Assembly (NCBI GenBank): GCA_964386865.1
Contig: CAYLUN010000011.1
Location: 12,058 to 76,057, forward strand
Source of the DNA: an uncultured Lentisphaeraceae bacterium
GTDB taxonomy: Bacteria; Verrucomicrobiota; Kiritimatiellia; RFP12; UBA1067
Direction: 5' to 3'
DNA: 64,000 nucleotides
Each line of letters starts with the position of its first letter. Positions within the stretch are counted from its first letter, which is position 1. Shown piece by piece: positions 19,180-61,522 of the stretch. A program made the position numbers and the translations under genes. Under the pieces are notes generated by a model that had not been told where the DNA came from, did no database searches, and saw only the letters and a list, made by a program, of their open reading frames with translations.

Positions 19180-19321
19180 ATGGGATACATCACGTCATGT
19201 GCAGAGGGAGTGGGGGCAACGGCCCTCCTGGTGTATTTCTCTCTTTCCGGCTTCGGCCGGGCGTTTACAAGCGGCGGCGAAACGTGTACTCTAGTGCTCC
19301 AGTTCAGAAAGAAGGTGTGTG

Positions 19322-24913: not shown

Positions 24914-24961
24914 GGGCGCGGCAGTCGGGGTCACGGTATGGGCGGTATGGGCGTTTCGGCC

Positions 24962-24987
24962 TTCTCACACCTCCGGAGGTGTGAGAA
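24962..24987. promoter_or_regulatory. Perfect 26-bp palindrome TTCTCACACCTCCGGAGGTGTGAGAA (copy 2), about 128 bp upstream of the 25115 start
   Basis: Identical to copy 1 at 19154-19179. It lies in the non-coding leader, which the track mis-annotates as an N-terminal extension of ORF 24938. Confidence 0.5.
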
Positions 24988-25114
24988 CGTGTTGGCGAGC
25001 GCCGGGCAGCGGCAGGATAGGCTCGTCACGCAGCCGGTTCAGGAGCGCCGGGCGAGGGCTGCGGGGTCAAGCCGCCTGAGCGGGCCGGCGGAGTGTGTTC
25101 GAAAGGGGGCTCTG

Positions 25115-30400: not shown

Positions 30401-30594
30401 GCGTGCGCTCCTTTGCCAAGCTACGATCACTTCCGCTTTAAACAGCATTACGTTCGCACACTCTCCGTTCCCGGTCAAGATGGATAAACGACCACAGGTT
30501 TGGTTTTGCGAACGAGCAGGGCAAACGGCTATACTATGAGGTTGACTATGGCGTGCCGCGTGCGGAGACGCGTGCCGCGAGGGCGGTGACACGG

Positions 30595-36454: not shown

Positions 36455-36871
36455 GTGCATGACGTCATGAACGGTTCTGCCCAGATCCGGGATGGCGGCG
36501 AGCTGTTGCCGGGCCCTTTCCGGCTCGACTCTTCCAAATACAAAGCCGTATTTGCCGAAAAGACGTCGTTCTACGGGCAGACCTTGGTGATCTGGGTAGC
36601 GATCACGCCCGACGCCGGCCGCAGGGCCGGCGTTGTCGTTTCCAAGCGGACGTTCCGGCGGGCGGTGGATCGCAACCGCGCCAAGCGGCTGATGCGCGAG
36701 GCGTTCCGCCTGAGCCGGCACCGGCTCAAGCCGGACGTGGCCCTGATTCTGATCGCCCGCGGCGGCATCGCGGGCAAGCGGTGTCAGGACGTGAAGATCG
36801 ATTTCGAGCGGATCTGCCGGCGGGCCAAGGTCTGGCAGACGGCGGCGGCTCCCGGCGCGGCGCCGGCCTGA
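36455..36871 (+). CDS. rnpA: Ribonuclease P protein component
   Basis: RNase P protein motif VSKRTFRRAVDRNRAKRLMREAFR. The start is ambiguous: GTG at 36455 or ATG at 36467. Confidence 0.85.
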   Translation: MHDVMNGSAQIRDGGELLPGPFRLDSSKYKAVFAEKTSFYGQTLVIWVAITPDAGRRAGVVVSKRTFRRAVDRNRAKRLMREAFRLSRHRLKPDVALILIARGGIAGKRCQDVKIDFERICRRAKVWQTAAAPGAAPA

Positions 36872-36882
36872 CGGAGGTGAGG

Positions 36883-37140
36883 ATGCGGCGGATCGTGGCC
36901 CTCGTCAGCCGGGCCGTGTGCGGCGTGCTGATTCTGTTTGTGCGGGCTTATCAGGTGACGCTCTCGCCGCACATCGGAAGCTGCTGCAGGTTCGAGCCGA
37001 CCTGCTCGGCTTACTGCATCGAGGCGCTGAAGACGCACGGCGCGTGGCGGGGCGGCTGGCTGACGCTTCGGCGCATCCTGCGCTGCCGCCCCTTCGGGCC
37101 TTCGGGCTACGATCCGGTGCCGCCCAGGAAAGGCTGTTAG
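36883..37140 (+). CDS. yidD: Membrane protein insertion efficiency factor YidD
   Basis: Conserved CRFEPTCSAY motif. RBS GGAGGTGA precedes the ATG at 36883. 85 aa. Confidence 0.9.
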   Translation: MRRIVALVSRAVCGVLILFVRAYQVTLSPHIGSCCRFEPTCSAYCIEALKTHGAWRGGWLTLRRILRCRPFGPSGYDPVPPRKGC

Positions 37141-37222
37141 GCAGAAGGCTGTTAGACTGTTAGGCAACCTCGCAACCGCTGAACCGTGAACCGTAGAACC
37201 TTTTCAACCTGAGCATTTACCC

Positions 37223-48595: not shown

Positions 48596-50035
48596 ATGGG
48601 GGCTGGCATGGGGCGTCGGGCATTGGGGGTCTGCTGCCTGCTGGCGGCGTGGGTCGCGGGCGCGGCGGATGCGCCGTTCATGGCTCTGCGTTTGGATGGC
48701 GGCCTCGCCGACAAACCCGAGTCGCTCAAGCCGGTTCTCGATGCGCTGGCGCGGTATCCGGCCTGTTTCGACGCGGTCGGGTTCGCCAAGGCGCCGGATA
48801 AGCCGGCCGTCGACGCCCTCCAGAAGCTGGGCCTGGCGACCGTGACGGCTGCAAGCCGTGCGAAGCCGGCCTTCCCGTTCAGCGACGATCATGCTCCGCG
48901 CGGCATGATCGGCAGCGCGCTGCTCTTCGCCGCAGGCCCGTCGCAGGACGTCGCGGCGCTCGGAGTCGGCCGCCAGTGCGCGTCGGGCAAGAGCGCCCAC
49001 GGGCTGTGCGTGGAGTCGATGCTGTCGCTGGCTTACGGTGCGGTCGGCCTCGAGTACGACTTGCTCTCCTACGGGCACGAGCCGGCGTCGTGGGTGGCGA
49101 ACACCTACCTGAGCGAGCTGACGCTGTGGCGGCCGTTCTATCTGGCGTACGCCCGGTACAATGCTGAGACCAAGCCCGGCGGCGTCTTGCCGTTCTGCGG
49201 CAAGCAGGGCCAGCCCGAACTCGCGGGCACGCTCAAGGCGGCCGACGCGCTCGCGCCGTCCGGGATGCCGCTGTGTCCCGGCTCGCCGTGGCCGGTGTGT
49301 TACATCCTGAATGCGGCGTCGGCGCAGAGCATGACCGCGGTGGACGTCCAGCGCGTGCTGTCGGGCGGCGTGCTGCTCGACGGCGGGGCGGTGGCGACGC
49401 TCCAGGCGCGCGGCTTCGGCGCGGCGCTGCAGCTGACCGCCGCGGCGCGCGAGCCGGACGTGTGCGAGGTCTTCACGGACGACGAGCTGAACCTCAACCG
49501 GGTCAACTACGTGTGGCGTCCGGATGCGCCGAAGGAGGAGACGTTCGCGCTCTGCCCGTCCAACGAGTCGGCGCGGGTGATCGGGCGCTACCAGCGGGCG
49601 GACGGCAGCTCGGCCGAGGCCGCGTCGGTGGTGTACGAAACCCCGGCGGGCGGCCGCATCGCGGCGTTCGGGTTCGCGGGGTTCGGCGCGGAGGTCAGCG
49701 CGGCTCGGCGCCGGCAGCTGCTGCTGGCGGCGGACTGGGTGGCGCAGAACCGGCTGCCGGTGTTCGTCGAGACCGCGTCGCAGGCGGTCGTGGTGCCGCG
49801 CGTGACCCTGGCGGGCGACCTGCGGAGCGTGACGGTGCTGAACGCGAGCATCGACGCGCAGCAGCCGGTGACCCTGCGCCTGCGCGGCTGTCCCGAGGGC
49901 CTCGAGCGCATGGAGTGGCTGATGCCCAAGGAGAAGCCGGTCACGGTCGCCGTGCGCTGGGAGGCGAAGGACGCGCTGGTGACCCTGCCCGCGGTCGGCC
50001 CGTGGCAGATCGGCTGGCTCCGCGCGGCGGAGTGA
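48596..50035 (+). CDS. Secreted hypothetical protein
   Basis: Signal peptide RRALGVCCLLAAWVAGAADA. No recognised motifs. The alternative start ATG 48608 has better RBS spacing. Confidence 0.5.
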   Translation: MGAGMGRRALGVCCLLAAWVAGAADAPFMALRLDGGLADKPESLKPVLDALARYPACFDAVGFAKAPDKPAVDALQKLGLATVTAASRAKPAFPFSDDHAPRGMIGSALLFAAGPSQDVAALGVGRQCASGKSAHGLCVESMLSLAYGAVGLEYDLLSYGHEPASWVANTYLSELTLWRPFYLAYARYNAETKPGGVLPFCGKQGQPELAGTLKAADALAPSGMPLCPGSPWPVCYILNAASAQSMTAVDVQRVLSGGVLLDGGAVATLQARGFGAALQLTAAAREPDVCEVFTDDELNLNRVNYVWRPDAPKEETFALCPSNESARVIGRYQRADGSSAEAASVVYETPAGGRIAAFGFAGFGAEVSAARRRQLLLAADWVAQNRLPVFVETASQAVVVPRVTLAGDLRSVTVLNASIDAQQPVTLRLRGCPEGLERMEWLMPKEKPVTVAVRWEAKDALVTLPAVGPWQIGWLRAAE

Positions 50036-50182
50036 GCGCGTGCGCGGGCTGAAAGCTGAACGCAAGGGCGCTAGGATGCAAGGGTGCTAGGGGTGCGGTT
50101 TAGGCGGGATTCGACAGGGCATGATTCTTGACGGGGTACGGGCGATCTGATATTTTTTGACATGTTAAAAACGGGGGTCAAG

Positions 50183-53100
50183 ATGGCGCGACAGATCGGG
50201 TGGGGCGTGGCGGTTCTGCTGGGGGTTGTGGCTGCGTATGCGCAAGAGCGGCGCGAGACGGCGCTGGAAGGCGCCTGCGCGTCGGTTGCCTATACCGGCG
50301 GCGGCGAGGTCGACGCGCTCAAGCCGGGCGCGGTGCTCTTCACGGACAGGGCGTACACCCTCAAGGAGTGTCCCGCGTGGCTGGTCGGCAAGCCGTTCCT
50401 GCGCAGCAGCATCGAGTCGGGCAGCCTGCGCATAACGGCCGACGGCGTGCTCACCGTGCTCACGCCCGAGCCCGTGCACCCGCGCGCGGCCACGCAGGCC
50501 AAGTCGCTGGAGCGGCGCGGGTTCGCGTGGATCGCCAGCCCCGAGCGCTTCCAGCTCTTCGGGGCGCAGCCGTTCGACCTGACCCGCGCCTATCAGAGGC
50601 ACGTCAAGAAGGGCGAGCGCCTGCGGCTGGGCAAGTGGGCCGTGGTCGCTGGTTTCGCGCAGGCCGAGCCGCTCGCGCCGCCCGCACAGGCCTGGGGTGC
50701 GAACACCGGCGAGCGCCTCTACAACGGCATCGTGCTGCCCGAGGAGTGGCCGCCGTCAGACATCGACCCGCGCGACGCCGCGCCCATGGCCGTTCCGTAT
50801 TTGGCCTGCCCGCCCCCGGTCATCCCCATCGACGTCGGCCGCCAGCTCTTCGTGGACGACTTCCTGATCGCGACCAGCACGCTGGCGCGCGTCTTCCACC
50901 TGCCCAAGAAATACGCGGGCAACCCGGTTCTCAAGCCGGAGACCAAACTGGAGCTGAACGGAGAGAAGAACGACGCGGCCGTGCCCAAGAGCGGCGGCGT
51001 GTGGTGGGATCCGGCCGAGAAGCTCTTCAAGATGTGGTACGAGGCGGGGTGGATCCACACCATCTGCTACGCCACGAGCAAAGACGGGCTCACGTGGGAG
51101 CGGCCGACGCTGGACGTGGTGCCCGGCACGAACCAGGTGCTGCCTCCGGATCTTACGCCCGACTCCTGGACCGTCGTGCCCGACTGGGAGGCGGCTGACC
51201 CGCAGCAGCGCTACAAGATGTACATGCGCCCGCCGGGCGGCCAGATGCCAGGAATCAGTATGACGTCGCCAGACGGCGTCCACTGGACGAACCGCGTGAT
51301 GAGCGGCGACACGGGCGACCGCAGCACGATGTTCTATAATCCGTTCCGCAAGAAGTGGGTCTACAGCTTGCGCTCGGGCTTCCGCGGCCGCTCGCGCCAC
51401 TACTGGGAGTGCGACGACTTCCTCGCCGGAGCGACGTGGAGCCCGGACGGCCCCGTGGTGTGGGCGGCGGCAGACCGCGACGACCCGAAGGACTGGGTGA
51501 CGCGGCGCATGCCGCAGCTCTACAACCTCGACGCCGTGGCCTACGAGAGCCTTCTGCTCGGCTTCTACCAGATCCACCACGGCCCGGAGAACGACGTGTG
51601 CGAGAAGACCGGCATCCCGAAGATCACGGAGCTGAACTTCGCCTACAGCCGCGACGGGTTCCACTGGAACCGGCCCGACCGCCGCATCGCCATCACGTCC
51701 GAGCGGCGCGACGTGTGGGACCGCGGCTACGTGCAGTCCATCGGCAACCTCTGTTGCGTGCGCGGCGACACCCTGTGGTTCTACTACACGGGCTTTCAGG
51801 GTGACACCGCCGCGACCAACCGCAACTGGATGACGAACGGCATGTACCACCGCGGCGCGACGGGCGTCGCCTTCCTGCGGCGCGACGGCTTCGCCTCGCT
51901 GGAGGCCGGCGCCGAGGGCGGCGAGCTGACCACGCGCCCCGTGACGTTCGGCGGCAGCCGTGTCTTCGTGAACGCCGCCGCCGCTGGCGGCGAAGTGCGC
52001 GTCGAGATTCTGGACGAGGCCGGTCAGGCGATCGCCCCGTACACGCTCGCGAACTGCCGTCCGGTGGCGGCGGACAGCGCGCTCGCGCCGGTCGCGTGGG
52101 AAGGCGCCGAGGACGTGTCGGCGCTGCGCGGCCGCACGGTGCGCTTCCGCTTCGCGCTGCGCCAGGCCGCGCTCTACGCCTTCTGGGTCAGCCGCGACGC
52201 GACGGGTCGCAGCGACGGCTACGTGGCGGGCGGCGGGCCGGGCTTCACCGGTCCGCGCGACACCGTGGGGCGCGCGGCGCTGGAGGCCGAGACGAGCGCC
52301 TTCGGCGGCGCCGCGCAAAGCGTGTTGCCGGCGGGCTGGAGCGCGCAGGCGGCCGGCGACCGGGTGCTGGCGGGGCTGGTGGCGGCGACCGCGCCGCAGG
52401 TGAGGGGCGCGCACGACGCCGAAATGGCGCTGGTCGGTGACCGCGCCTACGTCGTGGCCGAGGTGAACGACCTCCGTCCGGGCGAGGGGGCGGGGTGGCC
52501 GGAGATCTACTCCGCACTGTCGGTCGTGAACCTCAAGACGCTGGCCGTCGAGACGGTCATCCCCTTCGCCCGGGGCGGGCAGGCCTTTGAGAACGAGACC
52601 CTGCCGACGGGAGCCTGCTTCGTGCCGCGCATCCTCCAGAAGGACGCGTCTACGCTGCGCTGCTACTTCGCCAGCGAGCAGCCGGGGAAGCGGCAGGCGC
52701 AGACGTGGTTCCTCGACTTCGACCTCGCGTCGCAGACCTTCGGGAAGCAGCTCCAGCGCGCCAAGCTCAAGACGGCGGCGGGCGTGTTCGACATGCAGCC
52801 GCAATACCTTCATGCTGACGCGGCTGCGCAGGGCTTCGCGCGCAAGCCGGAGGATTTCGGCCTCTACGTTTTCGATTCGTTCAAGGTTTTCGACGGCAAG
52901 ACCTACGTGGCGCTCAACAACTATCCAGGCGGGCAGAACGCGCTGGCGGCGGTGAACGACGCGAAGGACACCTTCGAGGTGCTGGGACATTATAACGGCT
53001 CGGCCGAAACGAAGCTGACGGAGTCGGCGGTGAACCGCCTGCCCGACGGCACGTGGCTGGCGGTGTGCCGCCAGGAGGGAGGCACGCGCAACTACGCGTT

Positions 53101-53437
53101 CACGCAAAGCAAGGACGGGCGGGTCTGGACGCCCGGCGAGACTCGCAACGTGATCCCCAACGGCACGTCGTCCAAGCCCACCTTCGACAGGATCGGCGGG
53201 CTCTACTGGCTCGGGTGGCAAGAGGCCGAGGGGACGGGCATGGTGAGCCGCTCGGTCTTCAATGTCGAGGTCTCGCGCGACGGAGCGAACTGGGAGCGCA
53301 AGTACCGGTTCGTTACAGACAAGTCGTTCCAGTATCCGACTTTCCGCGAGCACGGCGGGCGCGTCTATGTGTGCGTGACGCAGGGCGACAGCTCCCCGTG
53401 CCGCAAGGAGCGGATCATGTTCGGGCGCGTGGAGTAG
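50183..53437 (+). CDS. BNR/Asp-box repeat protein, putative exo-glycosidase (sialidase-like beta-propeller) with N-terminal accessory domain
   Basis: Signal peptide present. There are at least five Asp-box motifs of the form SxDxGxTW (SKDGLTWERP, SPDGVHWTN, SRDGFHWNRP, SKDGRVWTP, SRDGANWERK). RBS GGGGG precedes the ATG at 50183. Confidence 0.7.
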   Translation: MARQIGWGVAVLLGVVAAYAQERRETALEGACASVAYTGGGEVDALKPGAVLFTDRAYTLKECPAWLVGKPFLRSSIESGSLRITADGVLTVLTPEPVHPRAATQAKSLERRGFAWIASPERFQLFGAQPFDLTRAYQRHVKKGERLRLGKWAVVAGFAQAEPLAPPAQAWGANTGERLYNGIVLPEEWPPSDIDPRDAAPMAVPYLACPPPVIPIDVGRQLFVDDFLIATSTLARVFHLPKKYAGNPVLKPETKLELNGEKNDAAVPKSGGVWWDPAEKLFKMWYEAGWIHTICYATSKDGLTWERPTLDVVPGTNQVLPPDLTPDSWTVVPDWEAADPQQRYKMYMRPPGGQMPGISMTSPDGVHWTNRVMSGDTGDRSTMFYNPFRKKWVYSLRSGFRGRSRHYWECDDFLAGATWSPDGPVVWAAADRDDPKDWVTRRMPQLYNLDAVAYESLLLGFYQIHHGPENDVCEKTGIPKITELNFAYSRDGFHWNRPDRRIAITSERRDVWDRGYVQSIGNLCCVRGDTLWFYYTGFQGDTAATNRNWMTNGMYHRGATGVAFLRRDGFASLEAGAEGGELTTRPVTFGGSRVFVNAAAAGGEVRVEILDEAGQAIAPYTLANCRPVAADSALAPVAWEGAEDVSALRGRTVRFRFALRQAALYAFWVSRDATGRSDGYVAGGGPGFTGPRDTVGRAALEAETSAFGGAAQSVLPAGWSAQAAGDRVLAGLVAATAPQVRGAHDAEMALVGDRAYVVAEVNDLRPGEGAGWPEIYSALSVVNLKTLAVETVIPFARGGQAFENETLPTGACFVPRILQKDASTLRCYFASEQPGKRQAQTWFLDFDLASQTFGKQLQRAKLKTAAGVFDMQPQYLHADAAAQGFARKPEDFGLYVFDSFKVFDGKTYVALNNYPGGQNALAAVNDAKDTFEVLGHYNGSAETKLTESAVNRLPDGTWLAVCRQEGGTRNYAFTQSKDGRVWTPGETRNVIPNGTSSKPTFDRIGGLYWLGWQEAEGTGMVSRSVFNVEVSRDGANWERKYRFVTDKSFQYPTFREHGGRVYVCVTQGDSSPCRKERIMFGRVE

Positions 53438-53477
53438 CGAAGGGCGAAAGGTCGGATAAGTTCAGCGGGAGGGTCTC

Positions 53478-54323
53478 ATGCGTGTGGCTCGGGTTGCTGC
53501 TGCGGCTGCGGTTCTTGTGGCGGCGATGATCGTGGGTGGATGCGCGTACCTGCGCGTGCCGAAGACGTCGTGGGGCGGCGGCGAGGTGTCTGCTGCCGAC
53601 GATCTAAAGGCCAAAGCCGAGGCGGGCGAGGCGGCGGCGCAGTATGCGTTCGGCTTTTCGCTGCTCTACGGCGAGGGCCTGCCGCGCAACGTGCCGGCAG
53701 GGCTGGAGTGGCTGCGCCAGTCGGCCGAGGGCGGCTATGTTCAGGCGCAGGCGGCGCTGGCGATCATGTATCGCAAAGGCCACGTGGTCGCGCAGAACGA
53801 CGAGGAGAGCGTTCGCTGGTACCGCAAGGCCTCCGAGCAGGGCCATGCGGACGCGCTGACCCAGCTCGGCATCGCGTACTACCGCGGCAAAGGCGTCGCA
53901 CAGTCGTTTGACGAAGCCAGGCGGTTCTTCGAGGCCGCCGCAGCGAAGGGCGATGCGCTGGCGATGGCGAATCTGGGTGTGCTGGCTAGTCGCGGCGAGG
54001 GCCTGCCCAAGGACGAGGCGCAGGCGGCGGCATGGTTCCGTAAATCCGCCGAACTCGGCAACGGCGACGGGCAGAGCAACCTCGGCACCGCCTACTACAA
54101 GGGCAGCGGGGTGAAGCAAGACTACGTCGAGGCGCTAAAGTGGTTTCAGGCCGCGGCCGCGCAGGGGAACGCAGCCGCCCAGTTCCGCGTGGGCTACATG
54201 TATGCGCACGGACAAGGCGTCGCGGCGGACGAGGCCAAGGCCGCCGAGTGGATCGGCAAGGCGGCGGCGCAAGGCCAGCCGCTGGCGGTCAAATGGCTGC
54301 AGGAGCGCGAGAAGCATCCCTAG
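53478..54323 (+). CDS. Sel1-repeat (TPR-like) lipoprotein
   Basis: Lipobox IVGGC. Seven Sel1-like repeats are present (AQYxxGxxYxxGxGVxxDxxxAxxWxxKAA). Confidence 0.8.
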   Translation: MRVARVAAAAAVLVAAMIVGGCAYLRVPKTSWGGGEVSAADDLKAKAEAGEAAAQYAFGFSLLYGEGLPRNVPAGLEWLRQSAEGGYVQAQAALAIMYRKGHVVAQNDEESVRWYRKASEQGHADALTQLGIAYYRGKGVAQSFDEARRFFEAAAAKGDALAMANLGVLASRGEGLPKDEAQAAAWFRKSAELGNGDGQSNLGTAYYKGSGVKQDYVEALKWFQAAAAQGNAAAQFRVGYMYAHGQGVAADEAKAAEWIGKAAAQGQPLAVKWLQEREKHP

Positions 54324-54343
54324 ACGACGGGCTCAAGTTCCGC

Positions 54344-54370
54344 TTTACAGACCGCCTCGGATTTTATAAT
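54344..54370 (+). promoter_or_regulatory. Putative sigma70-like promoter of the sulfur-assimilation operon
   Basis: TTTACA, then about 15 nt, then TATAAT (54365-54370), upstream of the AAGGAGGG RBS at 54414-54421. Confidence 0.3.
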
Positions 54371-54509
54371 CTACTCTCTCCATCGACTAAGTTTAGTTTA
54401 CGTGGGCTGAGTCAAGGAGGGCGCTTTCATCACACCGACACACACACGACTGACGACGCTGCTCGCGCAGGCGGGTAACCGCTGCGACCCCGCGACCGGC
54501 GCCATCTCG

Positions 54510-55577
54510 GTGCCAATCTACCAGACCGCCTCGTTCGGCCATCCGGCGCTGGGGCAGAGCACCGGGTTCGACTACTCGCGCTCCTCCAACCCGACGCGCC
54601 TCGCCCTGGAGCAGACCCTGGCGGCGGCCGACGGCGGCCACCGGGGCTTCGCCTTCGCCTCCGGCATGGCGGCCATCGACTGCGCGCTGCGGCTTTTCGC
54701 GCCCGGCGAGCGCATGGCGGTGACCGAAGACCTCTACGGCGGCACGTTCCGGCTCTTTGACAAGGTGTTCCGGCCGCTCGGAATCGAGGCGGTCTATGTG
54801 GACACGTCGGACGCAGAGGAGGTGCGCCGCGCCCTGGCAGACCCGCGCGTGAAAGGGCTCTTCGTCGAGTCGCCCACGAACCCGCTGCTCAAGGTCGCCG
54901 ACCTGCGCGCCCTGTCGGAGCGGGCGCGCGCGGCGGGCGCGCTGCTGATCGTGGACAACACCTTCCTGACGCCCGTCCTGCAGCGGCCTTTGGAGCAGGG
55001 GGCCGACCTCGTGGTCTACAGCGCCACCAAGTACCTCGCGGGCCACAACGACGTGGTTGCGGGCGCGGTGGTCACCCGCACCCCGGAGCTGTCGGAGCGG
55101 GTCGGTTTTCTCCAGAACGCGGTCGGCGGCATCCTCGGCCCGCAGGACGCCTGGCTCACCTTGCGCGGCCTCAAGACGCTGGCCTTGCGCGTCGAGCGGC
55201 AGCAGGCGAACGCGCAGGTCATCGCGGAGTGGCTGTGTCGCCACCCGCACGTGCGCCGCGTCTTCTACCCCGGTCTGCCCGGCCACGCGGGCCGCGACAT
55301 TCTCTTGCGCGAAAAGAGCGGCTTCGGCGGCATGATCGCGTTCGAGGTCGACGAGCCGGGACGCATTCCCGGCATCCTTTCGGGCGTGCGCGTCTTCCTG
55401 TTCGCCGAGAGCCTCGGCGGCGTGGAGTCGCTCATCACCTATCCCGCGGTGCAGACCCACGCGGACCTCGACGCGGCGACGCGCGAGCGCCTCGGCATCA
55501 ACGGACGCCTGCTGCGCCTCTCGGTCGGCATCGAGGACGTGCGGGATCTGATCGGCGATTTGGAGGGCGTGCTGTGA
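54510..55577 (+). CDS. PLP-dependent Cys/Met-metabolism enzyme (O-acetylhomoserine sulfhydrylase / cystathionine gamma-synthase family, PF01053); true start probably upstream at a non-canonical codon near 54429
   Basis: The conserved N-terminal motif (T..LLAQAGN..DPATGAISVPIYQTASF) is encoded in-frame upstream of the first canonical start (GTG 54510), back to the stop at 54408. A strong RBS AAGGAGGG lies 7 nt before ATC 54429. Downstream PLP-enzyme motifs are present (SATKYLAGHND). Confidence 0.8.
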   Translation: MPIYQTASFGHPALGQSTGFDYSRSSNPTRLALEQTLAAADGGHRGFAFASGMAAIDCALRLFAPGERMAVTEDLYGGTFRLFDKVFRPLGIEAVYVDTSDAEEVRRALADPRVKGLFVESPTNPLLKVADLRALSERARAAGALLIVDNTFLTPVLQRPLEQGADLVVYSATKYLAGHNDVVAGAVVTRTPELSERVGFLQNAVGGILGPQDAWLTLRGLKTLALRVERQQANAQVIAEWLCRHPHVRRVFYPGLPGHAGRDILLREKSGFGGMIAFEVDEPGRIPGILSGVRVFLFAESLGGVESLITYPAVQTHADLDAATRERLGINGRLLRLSVGIEDVRDLIGDLEGVL

Positions 55578-56710
55578 ACGACTGGACACGCGTGATACAC
55601 AGCGGGCGCGACCGCGACCCGCACACGGGCGCGTCGAGCGTCCCGATCTACCAGGTCTCGACCTTCGACCAGCCCGACCCCGAGCACCTCGGCGCGTACG
55701 ACTACGCCCGCAGCGACAACCCGACGCGCGAGGCGCTGGAGCACACCGTTGCGCAGCTCGAGGGCGGCGCGCGCGGGCTGGCCTTCGCCTCGGGCATGGC
55801 GGCCACCTCGTCGGCGCTGCTGCTCTTTCAGGCGGGCGACCACCTCGTCGTCGGCCGCGACATCTACGGCGGCACCTACCGCGTGCTGACCACGATCTTC
55901 AAGCGCTGGGGGCTCGACGTGACCTTCGCCGACAGCGCCGACCCCGAGGCGGTTCGCCGCGCGATCAAGCCGTCGACGCGCGGGCTCTTCGTGGAGAGCC
56001 CGGCCAACCCGCTGCTGCAGGTCACCGACCTGCGCACCATGGCCGAGATCGCCCGCGCGCACGGGCTGCTGGCCGTCACGGACAACACCTTCATGACGCC
56101 GCACCTGCAGCGTCCGCTCGACCTTGGCTTCGACCTCGTGGTTCACAGCGCCACCAAGTTCCTGGGCGGCCACAGCGACCTGATCGCCGGCGTGGCGGTG
56201 GCGCGCGACGCCGAGCTGGGCAAGCGGCTCAAGGCGATCCAGAACAGCTTCGGCGCGATCCTCGGGCCGCAGGACGCGTGGCTCGTGCTGCGCGGCATCA
56301 AGACCCTCGCCGTGCGGCTGGAGGCTCAGCAGCTGACGGCGGGCGTGCTTGCCCGCTGGCTGCACGCGCGCCCGGAGGTCCGGCGCGTGTTCTATCCCGG
56401 ACTCGACTCGCATCCCGGCCACGCCGTGCACGCGCGGCAGGCGCGCGGGGCGGGAGCCGTGCTATCGTTCGAGTTGGCGGACGGCCCGACAGCCGTGGCG
56501 TTCATGAAGCGCGTCAAGCTCCCGCTCGTGGCGGTGAGTCTCGGCGGCGTGGAGAGCATCCTCTCCTACCCCGTGACGATGTCTCACGCGGCCATGCCGC
56601 GCGAGGAGCGCTTGGCGCGCGGCATCACGGACGGGCTGGTGCGGCTCTCCGTCGGGCTCGAGAGCGCCGACGACCTGATGGCGGATTTGAAGCAGGCGCT
56701 GGAGGAGTGA
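55574..56710 (+). CDS. Second PLP-dependent Cys/Met-metabolism enzyme (MetB/MetC/MetY family paralogue)
   Basis: GTG start overlaps the upstream stop (GTGA) and is preceded by GGAGGG. Motifs DPHTGASSVPIYQVSTF and SATKFLGGHSD are present. Confidence 0.8.
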   Translation: MNDWTRVIHSGRDRDPHTGASSVPIYQVSTFDQPDPEHLGAYDYARSDNPTREALEHTVAQLEGGARGLAFASGMAATSSALLLFQAGDHLVVGRDIYGGTYRVLTTIFKRWGLDVTFADSADPEAVRRAIKPSTRGLFVESPANPLLQVTDLRTMAEIARAHGLLAVTDNTFMTPHLQRPLDLGFDLVVHSATKFLGGHSDLIAGVAVARDAELGKRLKAIQNSFGAILGPQDAWLVLRGIKTLAVRLEAQQLTAGVLARWLHARPEVRRVFYPGLDSHPGHAVHARQARGAGAVLSFELADGPTAVAFMKRVKLPLVAVSLGGVESILSYPVTMSHAAMPREERLARGITDGLVRLSVGLESADDLMADLKQALEE

Positions 56711-56714
56711 GCAC

Positions 56715-58298
56715 ATGCAGAGACAGTTGACGATGTTACGGCTGAGCGAGGAGGAGGAGGTCAAGGCCGCAGGCCTGCACCTCGACTTCGACGAGATGGC
56801 CAAGCGCGGCGGCATGACCCGCGAAGAGGGCCTGATCGCCAAGTGGTACGGCATCTACGGGTCGCGCCAGCCGGGCAGCAACATGGCGCGGGTGGTCATT
56901 CCCGGCGGTGTCTTCACGGCGGTCCAGGCGCGGCGCATCGCGGACGTCGCCGACCGCTACGGGCGCGGGCTCATCTGCGTCACGACCCGGCAGGCGCTCC
57001 AGTTCCACCACCTGAAGGTGGCCGACCTGCCCGGCCTGCTGCGCGAGCTGGCGCTGGACGGCGTCTCGACCTTCCACGGCTGCGGCGATGTGACGCGCAC
57101 CGTCGCCGCCTGCCCCTGCGCCGAGGAGTGCCCGCACCGGCGGTTGGACGTGCGCCCCTACGCCCGCGAGACGGCCCGCGCGCTGACCGCCATGCGCGAC
57201 CTCGACAACCTGCCGCGCAAATACAAAATCACCTTCTCGGGCTGCGAGGCCGGTTGCGCGCAGCCGTGGATGAACTGCGTGGGCGTCATGGCCGTGCGGG
57301 CCGCGGTCGCGGGCGCGGAGCGCGCCGGATTTCGCATCGTGATCGGCGGCGGCATGGGCTGGAAGGCCTTTGTGGCGCAGCCGCTCTTCTCCTTTGTTCC
57401 GGCCGAGCGCGTGGCGGCGGTCTGCCGCGCGATCGGCCTGCTTTTCCGCGACCACGGCGACCGCTTCAACCGCGCCAAGTCGCGCCTGAAGTTCGTGGTC
57501 GACCGGCTGGGTGTCGAGGCCTGCCGCGAGCTGGTGCTCGGCTACCTGTGGCAGGAGGGCGTGCCCGTCGCGGATTTGAAGTGGGGCGAGCTGGCTTACG
57601 CCGGACGCCCTGTGCCGGAGCGCCCCCTGACGGACAGCGAAGTCGCAGGCTGGAAGGACGGCGGAGGAGTCGTCCGCATCCGCATCCCCAAGGGAGAGCT
57701 GAGCGGCGCGCAGCTGCGGCGCATCGCCGAACTGTCCGAGCTGTTCGGCAGCCAGCGCGTCTACTCCACCAACCGGCAGAACCTCGAGCTGCACGGCGTG
57801 GCGCCGGACAAGCTCGCTGAGGCGCGGGCCGAAGTCGAGCGGCTGGGGTTCGCCACCGACGGCGTCCACGGCCTGCGCGACATGGTCTGTTGCGTCGGCA
57901 CGGAGCATTGCCCTAAGGCGGTCTCCTCGACGCGCACGCTGTTCGACCTCCTGCAGCCCGTGGTCGGAAGCCCCGCGTACCGCGCGGTCGAGGAGCGGGC
58001 CGCGATCCACATCACCGGCTGCCCCAACTCCTGTTCGCCGTACCGCATCGCGGACATCGGTTTCCGCGGCTTGCGGCTGCGGCTGGAGCAAGGCTCGGCC
58101 GAGGGCTTCGAGGTGCTGATCGGCGGCGACCAGCGCGCGCACGGCCACACGCTCGGCGAGTTTCGCAAGGAGGACTGCCCCGCCGTTGTGGCGGCTATTC
58201 TGGACACGTTCCTCGCGCGGCGCTGCGGCGACGAGACGCTGGCCGCCTGCGTGGCCCGCGTCGGCGTGGAGCCCTTCAAACAGGCGGTGTTCGCATGA
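56715..58298 (+). CDS. Sulfite/nitrite reductase hemoprotein (siroheme-[4Fe-4S], NIR_SIR domains)
   Basis: Two pseudo-symmetric halves. Siroheme/4Fe-4S cysteine motifs are present (CGDVTRTVAACPC and TGCPNSCSPYRIADIGFRG). RBS GGAGGAG. Confidence 0.8.
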   Translation: MQRQLTMLRLSEEEEVKAAGLHLDFDEMAKRGGMTREEGLIAKWYGIYGSRQPGSNMARVVIPGGVFTAVQARRIADVADRYGRGLICVTTRQALQFHHLKVADLPGLLRELALDGVSTFHGCGDVTRTVAACPCAEECPHRRLDVRPYARETARALTAMRDLDNLPRKYKITFSGCEAGCAQPWMNCVGVMAVRAAVAGAERAGFRIVIGGGMGWKAFVAQPLFSFVPAERVAAVCRAIGLLFRDHGDRFNRAKSRLKFVVDRLGVEACRELVLGYLWQEGVPVADLKWGELAYAGRPVPERPLTDSEVAGWKDGGGVVRIRIPKGELSGAQLRRIAELSELFGSQRVYSTNRQNLELHGVAPDKLAEARAEVERLGFATDGVHGLRDMVCCVGTEHCPKAVSSTRTLFDLLQPVVGSPAYRAVEERAAIHITGCPNSCSPYRIADIGFRGLRLRLEQGSAEGFEVLIGGDQRAHGHTLGEFRKEDCPAVVAAILDTFLARRCGDETLAACVARVGVEPFKQAVFA

Positions 58299-60058
58299 AA
58301 TACGACTATCCCCAAGCGCCCGCGTTCCGCGAGTACAGCACGCTCGACGGCGTCGGTCACACGGACAAAGACCGCAAGGCCATCGCCCGCCACATCCCCT
58401 GCCAGGAGGCCTGCCCGGCAGCCACGAACGTGCCGCTCTACATCGAGCGGGTTGCGCAGGGCGACTGGGCCGGCGCGTACGCGGTCAACCTGGCGTGCAA
58501 CGTCTTTCCCGGCGTGCTCGGCCGCATCTGCACGCGGCCCTGCCAGGCGCGCTGCCGCCACCAGTGGACCAACACCAGCGGCCCGGTCACGATCTGCCAC
58601 CTCAAGCGCGCGGCTGCAGACCGCGCGGCGGGCGCGGCAGCAGCGCCCAAGCCGTGGTTCGGCCCGACGGGCAAGCGCGTGGCCGTCGTCGGCGGCGGGC
58701 CGGCCGGGCTGGCCGCCGCGCGCGACCTGCGCCGCCTCGGCCACAGCGTGACGCTGTTCGAGCGCGAGTCGCACCTCGGCGGCATGCTGGTCGACGGCAT
58801 CCCGCGCTTCCGGCTGCCGCTTTCGGTCGTAGAGCGCGAGATCGGCTTCGTCGTGGACACGGGCGTAGACGTGCGCCTCGGCGAGGAGGTCGGCGCGGCC
58901 AGGCTTCGCGAGCTCTCCGCCGCGTTCGACGCCGTGCTCGTCGCGGCGGGCAACGCCGTCGAGGGGCGGGTCTCGATTCCCGGCGTGCCGGAGGAGGCCA
59001 TGCTCTCCGGCCTCGCCTTCATGCGGCGCTACAACGCGGGCGAGGTCGGCCAGCTCGAGGGCGACGTGATCGTGCTCGGCGGCGGGTTCACGGCGGTGGA
59101 CTGCGCCCGCGCCTCGGCGCGCGCCGCGCGCAAGCTGCTCGGCGCGGAGGGCTCGGTCAGCGTGATGTACCGCCGCACCGAGCAGTACATGGCCGCGCAC
59201 CCCGAGGAGCTGGAGGAGATGGAGCGCGAGCGCATCGGCGTGCGCACGCTCGTGACTGCGGTGTCGGGGACGGCGCGGGACGGTCGGCTGGAGTCGGTGA
59301 CGTTTCGCCGCAACGTGCTCGCATCCGGCGGCGCGTCGGGCAAGCCCGCCATCGAGCCGGTGCCGGGCAGCGAGTTCACGGTGCCGTGCTCGACGCTGAT
59401 CATCGCGGTCGGACAGTCGCGCGACGCCGCGCTGCTGCCGCCCGAGGGGTTGCCGAATCTCTTCGAAGCGGGCGACTTCGCCGGAGGCGCGAATGTGATT
59501 GAGGCCGTGGCGAGCGGCAAGCGCGCCGCGCGCGCGATCGACGAGCGCCTCATGGGCGCGCGCCGGCTCGAAGACGCCGTGGCGGTCGAAACCGTTGAGC
59601 GCGACGGCGAGACCGGGCGCGTGCGCGACCACGACCTGGTCGCGCCGGCGGCCATGCCGGTGATCCCCGTGGCCGCGCGCGCGGCGGGCGACGCCGAGGT
59701 CGAGGCTGGGCTGGACGACGCGCAGGCTGCGGCCAACGCCCGCCGCTGCTACCTCTGCCACTACACCTTCGAGATCGACCCCGACGCCTGCATCCAGTGC
59801 GGCTGGTGCATCGACGCTGCGCCGCGCCGCTGCATCAAGCGCCTGTCCCGTGTGAGCTTCGACGCCGACGGCGCCGTGGCGGAGACCGTCGAGGCCGCGG
59901 CGTCCGACGACACGACCTACATCTGGATCGACCCCGACGCGTGCATCCGCTGCGGCAAGTGCCTGCGCGTGTGCCCAACCGGCGCGATCAGCATGAAGCG
60001 CTCGGAGCGCGTGACGCGGCCCTGCGGCGGGAGCACGTGCGAGGCTTCACCGATTTGA
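58295..60058 (+). CDS. GltD-like NAD(P)H-dependent FAD/Fe-S oxidoreductase with C-terminal 2x[4Fe-4S] ferredoxin domain
   Basis: ATGA overlap with the upstream gene. N-terminal Cys cluster (CQEACPAAT, CTRPCQARC). Rossmann motif VAVVGGGPAGLAAA. C-terminal CIQCGWC and CIRCGKCLRVCP motifs. Confidence 0.8.
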   Translation: MKYDYPQAPAFREYSTLDGVGHTDKDRKAIARHIPCQEACPAATNVPLYIERVAQGDWAGAYAVNLACNVFPGVLGRICTRPCQARCRHQWTNTSGPVTICHLKRAAADRAAGAAAAPKPWFGPTGKRVAVVGGGPAGLAAARDLRRLGHSVTLFERESHLGGMLVDGIPRFRLPLSVVEREIGFVVDTGVDVRLGEEVGAARLRELSAAFDAVLVAAGNAVEGRVSIPGVPEEAMLSGLAFMRRYNAGEVGQLEGDVIVLGGGFTAVDCARASARAARKLLGAEGSVSVMYRRTEQYMAAHPEELEEMERERIGVRTLVTAVSGTARDGRLESVTFRRNVLASGGASGKPAIEPVPGSEFTVPCSTLIIAVGQSRDAALLPPEGLPNLFEAGDFAGGANVIEAVASGKRAARAIDERLMGARRLEDAVAVETVERDGETGRVRDHDLVAPAAMPVIPVAARAAGDAEVEAGLDDAQAAANARRCYLCHYTFEIDPDACIQCGWCIDAAPRRCIKRLSRVSFDADGAVAETVEAAASDDTTYIWIDPDACIRCGKCLRVCPTGAISMKRSERVTRPCGGSTCEASPI

Positions 60059-60068
60059 GGATGCCGCC

Positions 60069-60311
60069 ATGAAACGCTTCTGGCCCCTGTTATTGCTGGT
60101 TGCCGGTGTGCTGCTCGTCCTGGGCGGCTTCGCTTACGATGTGCTGTGCGCCGGCATTCCCTATCAGGATCCCACGCCGGAGCAGTCGGCGCGCTACGCG
60201 TACCATGCCCGCGTCGCGTCGTGCCTTCGCGGCGCAGGCCTAGCCGCCTTGCTGGCCGGGGCCGTCGCGGGTCTCGTCCGCCGCATGACCCGCAAGCCGC
60301 GCGGCGGATGA
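60069..60311 (+). CDS. Small two-TM membrane protein, hypothetical
   Basis: RBS GAGGA. 80 aa, with two hydrophobic helices. Confidence 0.45.
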   Translation: MKRFWPLLLLVAGVLLVLGGFAYDVLCAGIPYQDPTPEQSARYAYHARVASCLRGAGLAALLAGAVAGLVRRMTRKPRGG

Positions 60312-60523
60312 CGACAGCGCGGGCGGACGAGCCTCGTCCGGCTCGTAGCGCCGGACGTACTGTTTCATCTCGGATGCCGCGGCTTATCTGCTTCCGAACG
60401 TCGGTCCGCGCGCAGGTGAGTTCCCCGTCACGAACCGAAGGCTACGCGCCGGCTGAACGGCATGGACAGAAGCAGAACGGCGTGCTACGGTATCCTGTGC
60501 GTACGGTATACGGGAGGTGCGGC

Positions 60524-61522
60524 ATGCGTGTGATGAACTGGACGGTCGTTGTTTGGGGTGCGGCGTTTGCGCTGGCGGCGGCGGGAGCGGAGCCCGCGAT
60601 GAAGTGGGCGGATGAGACGCGGCTCGGGCGGCCGTTCTCGAAAGACCCGTCGGTGATCCGCTTCAAAGACCGCTACCTGATGTATTTCTCGCTGCCGCCG
60701 TTCGACGCGAAGCTCGCGCCGACGAACGCGCCCAAGGGCTGGTCGATCGGCATTGCCGAAAGCAAAGACCTGCTGGCCTGGAGCAAGGTCACCGAGCTGC
60801 GCCCGGAGCAGCCGTGCGACGCGAAAGGCCTGTGCGCGCCCGGCGCGCTGGTGCTGGAGGGCCGCGTGCACATCTTCTACCAGACCTACGGCAACGGCCC
60901 CAAGGACGCGCTCTGCCACGCGGTGTCTGACGACGGCGTGACCTTCACGCGGCACCCGCAGAACCCGGTTTTCCGCCCGCACGGCGCGTGGACCTCGGGC
61001 CGAGCGATCGACGCCGAGGCCTTCCCGCTCAACGGCAAGCTGCTGCTCTACTTCGCGACGCGCGACCCCAACATGGTCACGCAGATGGTCGGCGTGGCGT
61101 CGGCCGACCTGACGTCGGACTTCGGCCCCGCGGCGTGGACGCAGCTGCGCGACGGGCCGGTGCTGCGGCCCGAGCTGCCGTGGGAGAAGAAGTGCATCGA
61201 GGCTCCGACCGTGCTCCGGCGCGGCGACACGCTCTTCATGTTCTACGCGGGCGGCTACAACAACGAGCCGCAGCAGGTGGGCGTGGCCTCCAGCGCGGAC
61301 GGCGTCACGTGGGCGCGCCTCTCGGCCGAGCCGCTGCTGCCGAACGGCAAGCCGGGGGAGTGGAACGCCTCCGAGTCGGGCCACCCCGGCATCTTCGGCG
61401 AAGCCGACGGCCAGACGTGGCTCTTCTTCCAGGGCAACGCCGACAAGGGCAAGACCTGGTTCCTCTCGCGCGTCGGCATCGAGTGGAAGGCAGGCCGTCC
61501 GGCGGTGAAGAGGGGTCGTTAG
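60524..61522 (+). CDS. Secreted 5-bladed beta-propeller glycoside hydrolase (GH43/GH130/GH32-clan-like)
   Basis: RBS GGGAGGTG precedes the ATG at 60524, followed by a signal peptide. The motifs SKDPSVIRFKDRYLMYFS and ESKDLLAWSKV are typical of this propeller clan. Confidence 0.6.
   Translation: MRVMNWTVVVWGAAFALAAAGAEPAMKWADETRLGRPFSKDPSVIRFKDRYLMYFSLPPFDAKLAPTNAPKGWSIGIAESKDLLAWSKVTELRPEQPCDAKGLCAPGALVLEGRVHIFYQTYGNGPKDALCHAVSDDGVTFTRHPQNPVFRPHGAWTSGRAIDAEAFPLNGKLLLYFATRDPNMVTQMVGVASADLTSDFGPAAWTQLRDGPVLRPELPWEKKCIEAPTVLRRGDTLFMFYAGGYNNEPQQVGVASSADGVTWARLSAEPLLPNGKPGEWNASESGHPGIFGEADGQTWLFFQGNADKGKTWFLSRVGIEWKAGRPAVKRGR

Follow-up and report, generated by a model that had tools for sequence, protein, structure and literature searches.

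In Escherichia coli and Salmonella, the NADPH-dependent reduction of sulfite for cysteine synthesis is carried out by CysJI, the product of two adjacent, translationally coupled genes. The donor, CysJ, is a diflavin (FMN/FAD) protein of the flavodoxin-FNR type; its partner CysI has the siroheme-[4Fe-4S] fold, with four cluster cysteines and an R/R/K/K anion site. Enzymes of the NirA type usually take their electrons from free ferredoxin. Mycobacterium tuberculosis NirA (1zj8), maize sulfite reductase (SiR; 5h8v) and the plant nitrite reductases (NiR) are all monomeric two-repeat proteins served by a separate small ferredoxin. In AsrABC, a dissimilatory system, electrons from NADH reach the siroheme subunit through flavin and Fe-S subunits that are separate proteins specified by the same operon.

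Other donors have been described. DsrL is an NAD(P)H:acceptor oxidoreductase that works with dissimilatory DsrAB, and its definition demands that the organism possess dsrAB (PMC7596348). It begins with an Fe-S domain, continues with an FAD domain into which an NAD(P) domain is inserted, and ends, after a linker, in a 2x[4Fe-4S] ferredoxin; a YRR motif, found in DsrL-2, is tied to NADP(H) preference (PMC7596348). Mutant fitness led to the proposal that DUF2849 is an alternative donor to CysI (bioRxiv 10.1101/072470); in that case cysJ is absent, and the electrons are inferred to come from the product of a neighbouring gene, which is fused in some instances.

Here we analyse an operon in a 64,000-nucleotide stretch of DNA from an uncultured Lentisphaeraceae bacterium (the window). 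Its hemoprotein is encoded next to a flavoprotein that is not CysJ. How does such a hemoprotein obtain its electrons? The best reading of the sequences is that a SiR with a partner of the NfnB/GltD/DsrL type replaces the textbook CysJ arrangement. We consider it probable that the operon specifies a self-contained NADPH-dependent assimilatory sulfite reductase together with two transsulfuration enzymes of methionine and cysteine metabolism. A literature search found no paper describing the pairing of a SiR with a GltD-like flavoprotein.

Results

Organization of the operon

All five genes of the operon lie on the plus strand, between positions 54429 and 60311. They had been described as a tight operon with short gaps or overlaps, and the junctions read from the sequence bear this out: genes 1 and 2 overlap by GTGA, genes 2 and 3 are separated by 4 nt, genes 3 and 4 overlap by ATGA, and 10 nt separate genes 4 and 5. 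The genes are translationally coupled. Third-position GC is 0.92-0.95 in genes 1-4 and 0.80, in frame, in gene 5.

A promoter-like element precedes the operon on the plus strand (54344-54370). Position 54344, given earlier as the start of the operon, is not a codon but begins a -35-like hexamer (TTTACA, 54344-54349) that is followed after a 15-nt spacer by TATAAT (54365-54370). Both hexamers of this putative promoter are shared with the closest homologous operon, L050, despite diverged flanks; our consensus scan missed it because the scan demands a spacer of 16-18 nt. Downstream lies a leader box, ATCGACTAAGTTTAGTTT (54382-54399, plus strand), which may be an operator or an element of the 5'-UTR. 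The window holds a single copy where 0 would be expected (up to three mismatches allowed); L050 has the box with one change, and it was not found in the remaining 84 loci. Its region matched no Rfam family at E <= 1, and no S-box or other riboswitch was detected upstream of the operon.

The start of gene 1 is unusual. Its frame opens at 54411 and holds no ATG, GTG or TTG ahead of codon 54510. The apparent start is the ATC at 54429, which in the alignment stands opposite the ATG of the closest homologue, from L050, and lies 8 nt downstream of a Shine-Dalgarno-like AAGGAGG read from the sequence (54414-54420, plus strand). At the other end, a terminator-like plus-strand hairpin (60335-60357), identified by consensus match only, may close the operon; its stem of eight pairs, seven of them G-C, is followed by TACTGTTTCA.

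Gene 5, an 80-aa ORF with two hydrophobic stretches (60069-60311, plus strand), had been counted as a member of the unit, a small membrane protein. It falls outside the conserved unit: it has no Pfam or NCBIfam match, and a tblastn search of 80 related loci found no relative even with the threshold relaxed to E = 10. The ORF downstream of the pair in locus L088 is unrelated to it, and exact copies turned up on 8 contigs only. We regard it as lineage-specific and of doubtful relevance.

A conserved pair in a sulfur-assimilation neighbourhood

The conserved core of the operon is formed by genes 3 and 4, the SiR hemoprotein and the flavoprotein. This pair, sometimes as one protein, is conserved in more than 170 bacterial species. 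We surveyed 80 genomes from about ten phyla, with loci from Verrucomicrobiota, Kiritimatiellia, Lentisphaerae, Planctomycetota, Spirochaetia, Fibrobacterota/Chitinivibrionales, Desulfuromonadales, Myxococcota, Hydrogenedentes and Eubacteriales. In every locus that could be tested (78 of 78), the SiR gene is followed immediately on its 3' side by the flavoprotein gene, and all three independently picked flavoprotein homologues have PALP and SiR genes upstream.

What surrounds the pair? Neighbour clusters were counted around the pair loci and then identified with Pfam. A cysK-like PALP gene lies directly 5' of the pair in 44 loci. PAPS_reduct (cysH) is nearby in 26 loci, PF01053 genes in 17, a CysN-like GTPase in 16, a siroheme-synthase N-domain gene in 12, and MetK and AhcY in 9 each. 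The assimilatory role proposed in the first-pass annotation is backed by these neighbours (cysK, cysH, cysN, metK and ahcY). The same annotation had suggested sulfated glycans as a source of the sulfur, a speculative link that gained no support: the window ORFs scanned contained no sulfatase domain.

Could the pair instead be a fermentative sulfite reductase, an AsrABC-like electron sink or detoxification system for sulfite from organosulfonates or the environment? The organism looks fermentative, as pyruvate formate-lyase and its activase are present in the window, and proteins of the NfnB/SudA family, to which the partner belongs, often serve redox balancing in anaerobes. As in AsrABC, a siroheme subunit would be fed by a flavin/Fe-S partner from the same operon. 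The window operon carries no sulfate-activation genes; cysK, cysH and cysDN are all missing from it. In relatives, however, ordinary sulfate-activation genes adjoin the pair, with the cysteine-synthase-type gene so often directly upstream, and the window operon itself opens with two enzymes of cysteine and methionine biosynthesis. The hemoprotein matches the AsrC model poorly (89.8 bits against a cut-off of 324); AsrC is of a different, shorter branch, and AsrB is an FNR-type rather than a GltD-type flavoprotein. Genes for sulfonates or sulfoquinovose did not turn up in the window. Together these findings make a fermentative role unlikely, and argue for assimilation.

The flavoprotein

Gene 4 (58295-60058, plus strand) has a start codon that overlaps the stop of the SiR gene and encodes a 587-aa GltD/NfnB/DsrL-like iron-sulfur flavoprotein, predicted to use NADPH. 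Pfam places Fer4_20 at residues 33-111, Pyr_redox_2 at 128-381 and a Fer4 dicluster, the C-terminal 2x[4Fe-4S] ferredoxin domain, at 493-567. Across 58 sequences the motif YRR (292-294) is invariant, as are six N-terminal cysteines (C36, C40, C79, C83, C87 and C101) and ten C-terminal ones (C485, C488, C499, C502, C505, C513, C550, C553, C556 and C560). The AF2 model (pLDDT 87.7) places the ferredoxin domain confidently, and the top fold matches are the large subunits of NfnABC and StnABC, followed by NfnB and GltD. In the alignment with Thermotoga maritima NfnB, YRR matches the NfnB YRR and five of the eight NfnB cluster-ligand positions are kept in the N-terminal domain. NfnB C39 and C42 have no counterparts in the flavoprotein, and its K104 stands opposite NfnB E117, close to the invariant C101, so that the domain may hold one cluster or more.

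We infer that this flavoprotein is the electron donor to the hemoprotein. The proposal that the hemoprotein is partnered not by CysJ but by an NAD(P)H iron-sulfur flavoprotein of the GltD/NfnB/SudA family holds up, on its domains, strict gene order, fusions and co-evolution. It might be argued that the flavoprotein is a general Nfn-like NADPH:ferredoxin oxidoreductase, or a donor to some other acceptor, merely co-transcribed with a ferredoxin-dependent SiR: its nearest solved relatives in sequence and fold, which share its FAD and NADPH domains, are GltD and subunits of the electron-bifurcating NfnABC, StnABC and NfnAB, and free ferredoxin would be the expected donor to a NirA-type enzyme. Against this, the two proteins are naturally fused into one polypeptide of about 1120 aa in 17 loci from several phyla, one representative (P0245) having been confirmed domain by domain. 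Pairwise distances of SiR and flavoprotein correlate with r = 0.91 over 71 loci, a value reached by none of 999 Mantel permutations, and the gene order has no exception. No NfnA-, NuoF- or GltB-like partner gene was found among the recurrent neighbours, and the flavoprotein differs from the NfnB/GltD family in its additional C-terminal ferredoxin domain. We see no reason to expect electron bifurcation, and consider mere co-transcription very unlikely; a dedicated donor would account for the pairing.

The hemoprotein

Gene 3 (56715-58298, plus strand) encodes a predicted siroheme-[4Fe-4S] sulfite reductase hemoprotein of 527 aa and of the NirA/Sir type. It holds two copies each of NIR_SIR (3.4e-50) and NIR_SIR_ferr (9.6e-36), making up two repeats. 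Its R92, R128, K169 and K171 are invariant, and so are the cluster ligands C393x5C399...C436x3C440. The N-terminal repeat contains a full C-x5-C...C-x3-C motif of its own, which tobacco NiR and CysI lack. The AF2 model (pLDDT 93.5) matches best the fold of M. tuberculosis NirA (TM 0.86), which is biochemically a sulfite reductase, followed by NiR (0.80), maize SiR (0.79) and CysI (0.69-0.76). The score against the NCBIfam CysI model is 154 bits, with a cut-off of 457.

Grouping with NirB or NirA nitrite reductases, together with a separate canonical cysJI in the genome, had been named in advance as refuting evidence. By sequence the protein is indeed placed in the NirA family, but its active-site motif is RKYK, close to the RKFK of CysI, as opposed to RKWN in tobacco NiR. 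Judged by these residues, the active site is of the SiR type (R-K-x-K), not the K-x-N of plant NiR. Placement in the NirA family is not diagnostic against a SiR because the family includes true sulfite reductases. Among 150 representatives, K-x-N goes with NirB-like or Rieske fusions and K-x-K with TusA or rhodanese fusions. A role in nitrite assimilation, with the hemoprotein making ammonium from nitrite and NADPH as the source of electrons via the GltD-like protein, is very unlikely, although the strongest PDB sequence matches are tobacco and spinach nitrite reductases (E = 4.6e-52 to 1.7e-46), 'ferredoxin--nitrite reductase' stands second in the NCBIfam list and JGI names some homologues ferredoxin-nitrite reductase, since the active site, the fusions, the top fold match and the neighbours, which include no nitrate or nitrite genes, all point to sulfite.

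The PLP enzymes

Genes 1 and 2 encode two PF01053 paralogues. Enzyme 1 (382 aa; 54429-55577, plus strand; Pfam E = 9.8e-134) is of the MetI/MetB/MccB-like cystathionine gamma-synthase (CGS) or gamma-lyase (CGL) type. Its top NCBIfam models are MccB-type (463 bits), MetB CGS (440) and MetI (437), all under their cut-offs, and its top PDB matches are 7d7o (CGL/homocysteine desulfhydrase) and 4l0o (CGS). Enzyme 2 (378 aa; 55574-56710, plus strand; Pfam E = 8.1e-145), which starts with the GTG that overlaps the stop of gene 1, is of the MetC-like cystathionine beta-lyase type: its top model is PRK08064, a cystathionine beta-lyase (549 bits, cut-off 627; the runner-up scores 485), and its top PDB match is the cystathionine beta-lyase 8jui.

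The enzymes had been taken as MetY-like, acting by direct sulfhydrylation. This was not supported: both score highest against gamma-synthase/gamma-lyase and beta-lyase models and structures, and the models for O-acetyl- and O-succinyl-homoserine sulfhydrylases come far behind. In sequence they resemble the transsulfuration enzymes MetI/MetB and MetC, respectively. The metI-metC operon of Bacillus subtilis likewise has two adjoining PF01053 paralogues; the best model of enzyme 2 is of the B. subtilis type, and enzyme 1 falls among the gamma-synthase/gamma-lyase models. The window enzymes, however, all score under the equivalog cut-offs, and their genes are co-transcribed with a sulfite reductase. 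Because MetI of the B. subtilis type has a side thiolyase activity, direct thiolysis by enzyme 1 is possible.

Discussion

We propose the following path for electrons and sulfur. Hydride from NADPH would reduce the FAD of the flavoprotein, from which single electrons would pass to the N-terminal Fe-S cluster(s) and on to the protein's own ferredoxin domain. Tethered by a linker of roughly 70-100 residues, this domain would dock on the NirA/Sir-type hemoprotein as a built-in ferredoxin and feed its [4Fe-4S]-siroheme, where sulfite would be reduced to sulfide in six one-electron steps. The flavoprotein would therefore replace both the CysJ of the E. coli type and the free ferredoxin and reductase of the plant and mycobacterial type. 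CysK, encoded elsewhere, would convert the sulfide to cysteine, and the MetI/MetB-like and MetC-like enzymes would carry the sulfur on to homocysteine.

With CysJI this system shares the proposed overall reaction, the arrangement of adjacent, coupled genes, and the fold, cluster cysteines and anion site of the hemoprotein. It differs in its donor, FAD and multi-[4Fe-4S] rather than diflavin, and in a hemoprotein nearer to the NirA/Sir type than to CysI. The ferredoxin-dependent enzymes are the closest family of the hemoprotein in fold and sequence, but here the ferredoxin domain is built into an NADPH flavoprotein, and in every testable locus the flavoprotein gene adjoins the SiR gene or is fused to it. 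The case of CysI with DUF2849 is similar in its logic; DUF2849, however, is small, proteobacterial and unrelated to GltD-like flavoproteins, and its proposed role comes from fitness data.

A further parallel is DsrL. Compared with its published description, the window flavoprotein has the defining domain order and YRR, and the role proposed for both is to connect pyridine nucleotide with a sulfite reductase that carries siroheme. The partner here, in contrast, is not DsrAB but a monomeric hemoprotein of assimilatory type found in cys/met clusters. On our reading, the flavoprotein/SiR pair would be the assimilatory counterpart of DsrL with DsrAB. If this is true, a tethered ferredoxin domain stands in for CysJ or free ferredoxin in sulfur assimilation.

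Results

A compact operon around a siroheme hemoprotein

The window is rich in G+C (~68%), and its long ORFs were ranked by third-position GC. A single compact unit on the + strand spans 54344-60357. Genes 1 (54429-55577) and 2 (55574-56710) both encode PF01053 PLP enzymes (Pfam E = 9.8e-134 and 8.1e-145). Gene 3 (56715-58298) encodes a 527-aa hemoprotein in which Pfam finds the NIR_SIR_ferr plus NIR_SIR repeat twice, and gene 4 (58295-60058) a 587-aa flavoprotein with Fer4_20, Pyr_redox_2 and a C-terminal 4Fe-4S dicluster domain. Gene 5 (60069-60311) is an 80-aa ORF with no Pfam family match. Genes 1 and 2 overlap by GTGA and genes 3 and 4 by ATGA, whereas 4 nt separate genes 2 and 3 and 10 nt separate genes 4 and 5; a terminator-like hairpin (60335-60357) lies 3' of the operon genes. 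The gene list and the compact operon proposed in the first-pass annotation therefore stand: Pfam sees all of the domains, and the overlaps and short gaps can be read directly.

The apparent start of gene 1 is unusual. No canonical start was found 5' of the first position of the PF01053 profile. An ATC at 54429-54431 lies 8 nt past AAGGAGG and lines up exactly with the start ATG of its counterpart (79% identical) in L050, the closest homologous operon. Either this ATC is a non-canonical start, which would be rare, or the assembly has a wrong base here. Upstream, an AT-rich leader (54344-54399) is kept in L050 (244-301), with a -35-like TTTACA, a TATAAT and an 18-nt box, ATCGACTAAGTTTAGTTT. This leader may be a lineage-specific promoter and operator. 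We rejected the box as the signal of a shared regulon, since it occurs once in the window and otherwise only in L050, and is missing from 84 other loci. A riboswitch was also rejected, as an Rfam scan of 53000-61000 at E <= 1 gave no match. No inverted repeats were found in the leader.

The hemoprotein and flavoprotein genes travel together

How general is the pairing of genes 3 and 4? Searches at E <= 1e-20 give over 1400 homologues for each protein, and the same contigs recur in both lists. Searching one genome per species, we found a hemoprotein relative in 172 species. The neighbourhood counts that follow rest on the best 80 of these 172 relatives, which are 52-80% identical to the window hemoprotein and come from Verrucomicrobiota/Opitutales, Kiritimatiellia, Lentisphaerae, Planctomycetota, Spirochaetia, Fibrobacterota/Chitinivibrionales, Desulfuromonadales/Geobacter, Myxococcota, Hydrogenedentes and Eubacteriales. 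The closest plasmid-borne match has 32% identity.

The flavoprotein gene lies directly 3' of the hemoprotein gene in 78 of the 80 loci; the contig ends in the remaining two. The gap from one HSP to the next ranges from -1 to 192 nt, and in 17 loci one ORF of ~1120 aa joins the two proteins. A representative at the 50%-identity level, P0245, carries two NIR_SIR domains, Fer4_20, Pyr_redox_2 and Fer4 on a single chain. The association also holds from the other side: three flavoprotein homologues picked without regard to the hemoprotein all have PALP-SiR immediately 5'. Finally, pairwise distances within the two families correlate across 71 loci (r = 0.91), a value reached in none of 999 permutations. 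Fixed gene order, fusion and co-evolution are classically seen between subunits of a single enzyme, which the hemoprotein and flavoprotein probably are.

The 80-aa membrane ORF does not share this history. We rejected it as a conserved part of the system: it has zero relatives in the 80 loci even at E = 10 and no counterpart in the 80%-identical locus L005, and the downstream ORF in locus L088 is unrelated. Some loci hold additional genes of the same kinds. Fused-pair Geobacter/Desulfuromonadales loci also have a short second SiR-like ORF (L020 5468-5890, L038 6162-6680, L043 4218-4997 and L044 6272-6700), and three of them (L020, L043 and L044) have in addition a longer MetY-like PF01053 gene 5' of cysH-cysN. 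A Kiritimatiellia locus has, besides the pair, a second SiR paralogue, 33% identical, 3' of cysH-cysN (L017 17299-18747).

The hemoprotein has a sulfite-type active site

PF01077 and PF03460 each match the hemoprotein twice, as expected of the tandem repeats of the siroheme SiR/NiR family. The C-terminal repeat carries the ligands of the siroheme-coupled [4Fe-4S] cluster (C-x5-C...C-x3-C): C393, C399, C436 and C440 occur without exception in 59 sequences, in register with the cluster cysteines of E. coli CysI. R92, R128, K169 and K171, also invariant, form the sulfite-type Arg/Arg/Lys/Lys anion site; we take R83, R153, K215 and K217 of E. coli as the reference positions and Lys-x-Asn as the nitrite type. 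The motif reads RKYK here, RKFK in E. coli CysI and RKWN in tobacco nitrite reductase.

Among 150 representatives, K-x-N occurs with NirB-like or Rieske fusions and K-x-K with TusA or rhodanese fusions. In NirA-like representatives, then, the signature follows whether the fusion partner belongs to sulfur or to nitrogen metabolism; P0255, P0268, P0349, P0376 and P0340 are such fusions, to TusA, rhodanese, a NirB-like reductase plus BFD/2Fe-2S, or Rieske.

The AlphaFold model of the hemoprotein (pLDDT 93.5) matches M. tuberculosis NirA best (TM 0.86), followed by plant NiR (0.80), maize ferredoxin-SiR (0.79) and E. coli SiRHP (0.69-0.76). We understand M. tuberculosis NirA to be, biochemically, a sulfite reductase. 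Identity to the window protein is 51% or more among representatives of the hemoprotein family and falls to 40% in the next nearest; by sequence identity, the family is a distinct clade.

The N-terminal repeat has a full C-x5-C...C-x3-C motif of its own (C133, C139, C177 and C181), which lines up with the C-terminal ligands when the two repeats are aligned to each other (score 156 vs 42 +/- 7 for shuffles). To judge from this motif, the N-terminal repeat may bind a second [4Fe-4S] cluster. The motif is missing in tobacco NiR and E. coli CysI. We rejected it as a family hallmark, because it is common among bacterial NirA-like representatives.

The flavoprotein is a probable NADPH-dependent donor

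The flavoprotein consists of an N-terminal Fe-S domain (residues 33-111), a FAD/NAD(P) domain (128-381), a linker (~420-490) and a C-terminal ferredoxin domain (493-567) with two complete cluster motifs. An extra invariant C485-x2-C488 lies just ahead of these motifs. Among solved structures, the flavoprotein is closest to the NfnB-like modules of NfnABC and StnABC and next to NfnB, GltD and DPD, and its model (pLDDT 87.7) matches NfnB/GltD-family folds with TMt 0.71-0.75.

The N-terminal domain of the NfnB/GltD family carries two [4Fe-4S] clusters; of the eight NfnB ligand positions, the flavoprotein keeps five, lacks two and has another residue at one. In the alignment, C36, C40, C79, C83 and C87 correspond to C47, C51, C90, C96 and C100 of T. 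maritima NfnB; NfnB C39 and C42 have no counterpart; and NfnB E117 stands opposite K104, with an invariant C101 three residues earlier.

The flavin and NADPH domains are conserved, and the YRR motif (292-294) is invariant; this motif was tied to NADP(H) in a study of DsrL (PMC7596348). Domain order and YRR motif therefore point to an NADPH:ferredoxin-domain reductase that feeds a ferredoxin-type sulfite reductase. Electrons would pass from NADPH to the flavoprotein's own ferredoxin domain and from there to the sulfite reductase.

Many members of the flavoprotein family are labelled 'formate dehydrogenase major subunit' by JGI, which their domain content marks as a mis-annotation.

The pair sits among genes of sulfur assimilation

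Recurrent neighbour genes were grouped by clustering and then named by Pfam. In 44 loci a 309-aa PALP gene of the cysteine synthase type lies directly 5' of the hemoprotein gene. Other neighbours are PAPS_reduct (26 loci), a CysN-like GTPase (16), the siroheme-synthase N-terminal domain (12), and MetK and AhcY (9 each); PF01053 genes lie near the pair in 17 loci. Because of these neighbours, we regard the setting of the pair as an assimilatory sulfur neighbourhood. No flavodoxin or FNR gene was found among the recurrent neighbours in the 80 loci.

What do the two PLP enzymes contribute? The first-pass annotation had read them as MetY-like, implying direct sulfhydrylation, but this is not the best-supported assignment: O-acyl-homoserine sulfhydrylase models score far below CGS/CBL models. 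Gene 1 scores 437-463 bits with gamma-lyase/gamma-synthase models (cut-offs 513-594). Gene 2 is best matched by PRK08064, the B. subtilis-type cystathionine beta-lyase (549 bits vs a cut-off of 627), with the next model at 485. The sulfhydrylase models reach only 286 and 325 bits, in two split stretches (TIGR01326), and 320 and 336 bits (TIGR01325); no model reaches its cut-off. The proteins are also shorter, 378-382 aa vs the ~430-aa MetY/MetZ architecture. The best PDB matches of both have mixed names (CGS, CGL, CBL), consistent with the profile scores. From scores and PDB matches together, the operon therefore appears to link sulfite reduction to transsulfuration towards methionine.

The surrounding window

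Elsewhere in the window lie genes for glycan degradation and for surface proteins, for PFL and its activase and for a phosphoglucomutase, as well as rnpA, yidC and galK. No other cys genes and no sulfatase domains were found among the window ORFs scanned; the earlier suggestion of a link to sulfated glycans is not supported. The closest genomes are labelled Verrucomicrobia MAGs, and the source is an uncultured PVC-type bacterium.

Pyruvate formate-lyase activase and pyruvate formate-lyase (18118-21682; PFL-like, E = 1.4e-227) indicate that the organism lives as an anaerobic fermenter. A 3234-aa protein on the - strand (4214-13918) combines PA14, GLEYA, DUF4962/heparinase II/III-like, LamG and autotransporter passenger repeats, and two further giant LamG/PA14 proteins lie at 24938-28753 and 30553-36111. 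The middle domain of hydrazine synthase alpha (PF18582, E = 2e-23) is found in a 956-aa protein (152-3022), whose context does not look like anammox. Two ORFs just 5' of a Sel1-repeat gene, 48596-50035 (479 aa) and 50162-53437 (1091 aa), show strong coding GC3 and no Pfam match. The rnpA-yidC pair, usually found near the chromosomal origin, lies at 36455-39046; cumulative GC skew climbs over most of the window but levels off and dips slightly at ~30-40 kb.

Discussion

Sulfite reduction is the committing step of sulfur assimilation, and to our knowledge its textbook electron donors are only CysJ and free ferredoxin. In CysJI, the donor is the diflavin protein CysJ (flavodoxin plus FNR), encoded beside cysI, whereas the gene adjoining the window SiR encodes Fer4_20, Pyr_redox_2 and a Fer4 dicluster. 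The initial view that the partner is GltD-like and other than CysJ is supported, and is considerably strengthened by gene order, fusions and co-evolution. Unlike NfnB and GltD, the flavoprotein has the hemoprotein as its constant partner; no NfnA, NuoF-like subunit or GltB occurs among the recurrent neighbours. AsrABC differs as well: TIGR02912 (sulfite_red_C) gives the hemoprotein 89.8 bits vs a cut-off of 324, and the partner comes from a different family.

A further likeness is to DsrL, the NAD(P)H partner of DsrAB. DsrL is defined by an N-terminal Fe-S domain, a FAD domain with an embedded NAD(P) domain, a linker of ~100 aa and a C-terminal 2x[4Fe-4S] ferredoxin, and the definition requires dsrAB in the organism (PMC7596348). 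Judged against this published definition, the flavoprotein has the defining domain order. Its neighbour in all 80 loci, however, is a monomeric NirA-type hemoprotein; the DsrA and DsrB models reach only 52 bits.

The donors that we found described for sulfite reductases are CysJ, free ferredoxin and DUF2849 (bioRxiv 10.1101/072470). In the open-access papers searched, no GltD/DsrL-like protein was described as the electron donor of an assimilatory sulfite reductase, an absence that is no proof. The SiR-flavoprotein pair is widespread and apparently unstudied. A bolder proposal, which we put forward only tentatively and think rather unlikely to hold, is that it constitutes a third class of pyridine-nucleotide-dependent assimilatory sulfite reductase, widespread but so far overlooked, with a DsrL-type donor and a second, DsrA-like Fe-S site in the N-terminal repeat. 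If so, DsrL-type electron input would be older than the divergence of the assimilatory siroheme sulfite reductases from the dissimilatory ones, and many 'incomplete' sulfate-assimilation pathways in PVC bacteria, spirochaetes, Fibrobacterota and Geobacter would in fact be complete.

Annotation could be corrected both for the flavoprotein, now called 'formate dehydrogenase major subunit', 'glutamate synthase small subunit' or 'FAD-dependent oxidoreductase', and for the hemoprotein, often called 'ferredoxin-nitrite reductase'. Electron transfer between DsrL and DsrAB is poorly understood, and the pair would offer a simple, soluble model of it on the assimilatory side; the natural SiR-flavoprotein fusions are ready constructs for structural work. 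A strictly conserved, sometimes fused NfnB/DsrL-like donor would add a third donor type, present in more than 170 species, and the pair would account for sulfite reduction in many anaerobic glycan degraders, spirochaetes and Geobacter relatives that have no annotated CysJ.
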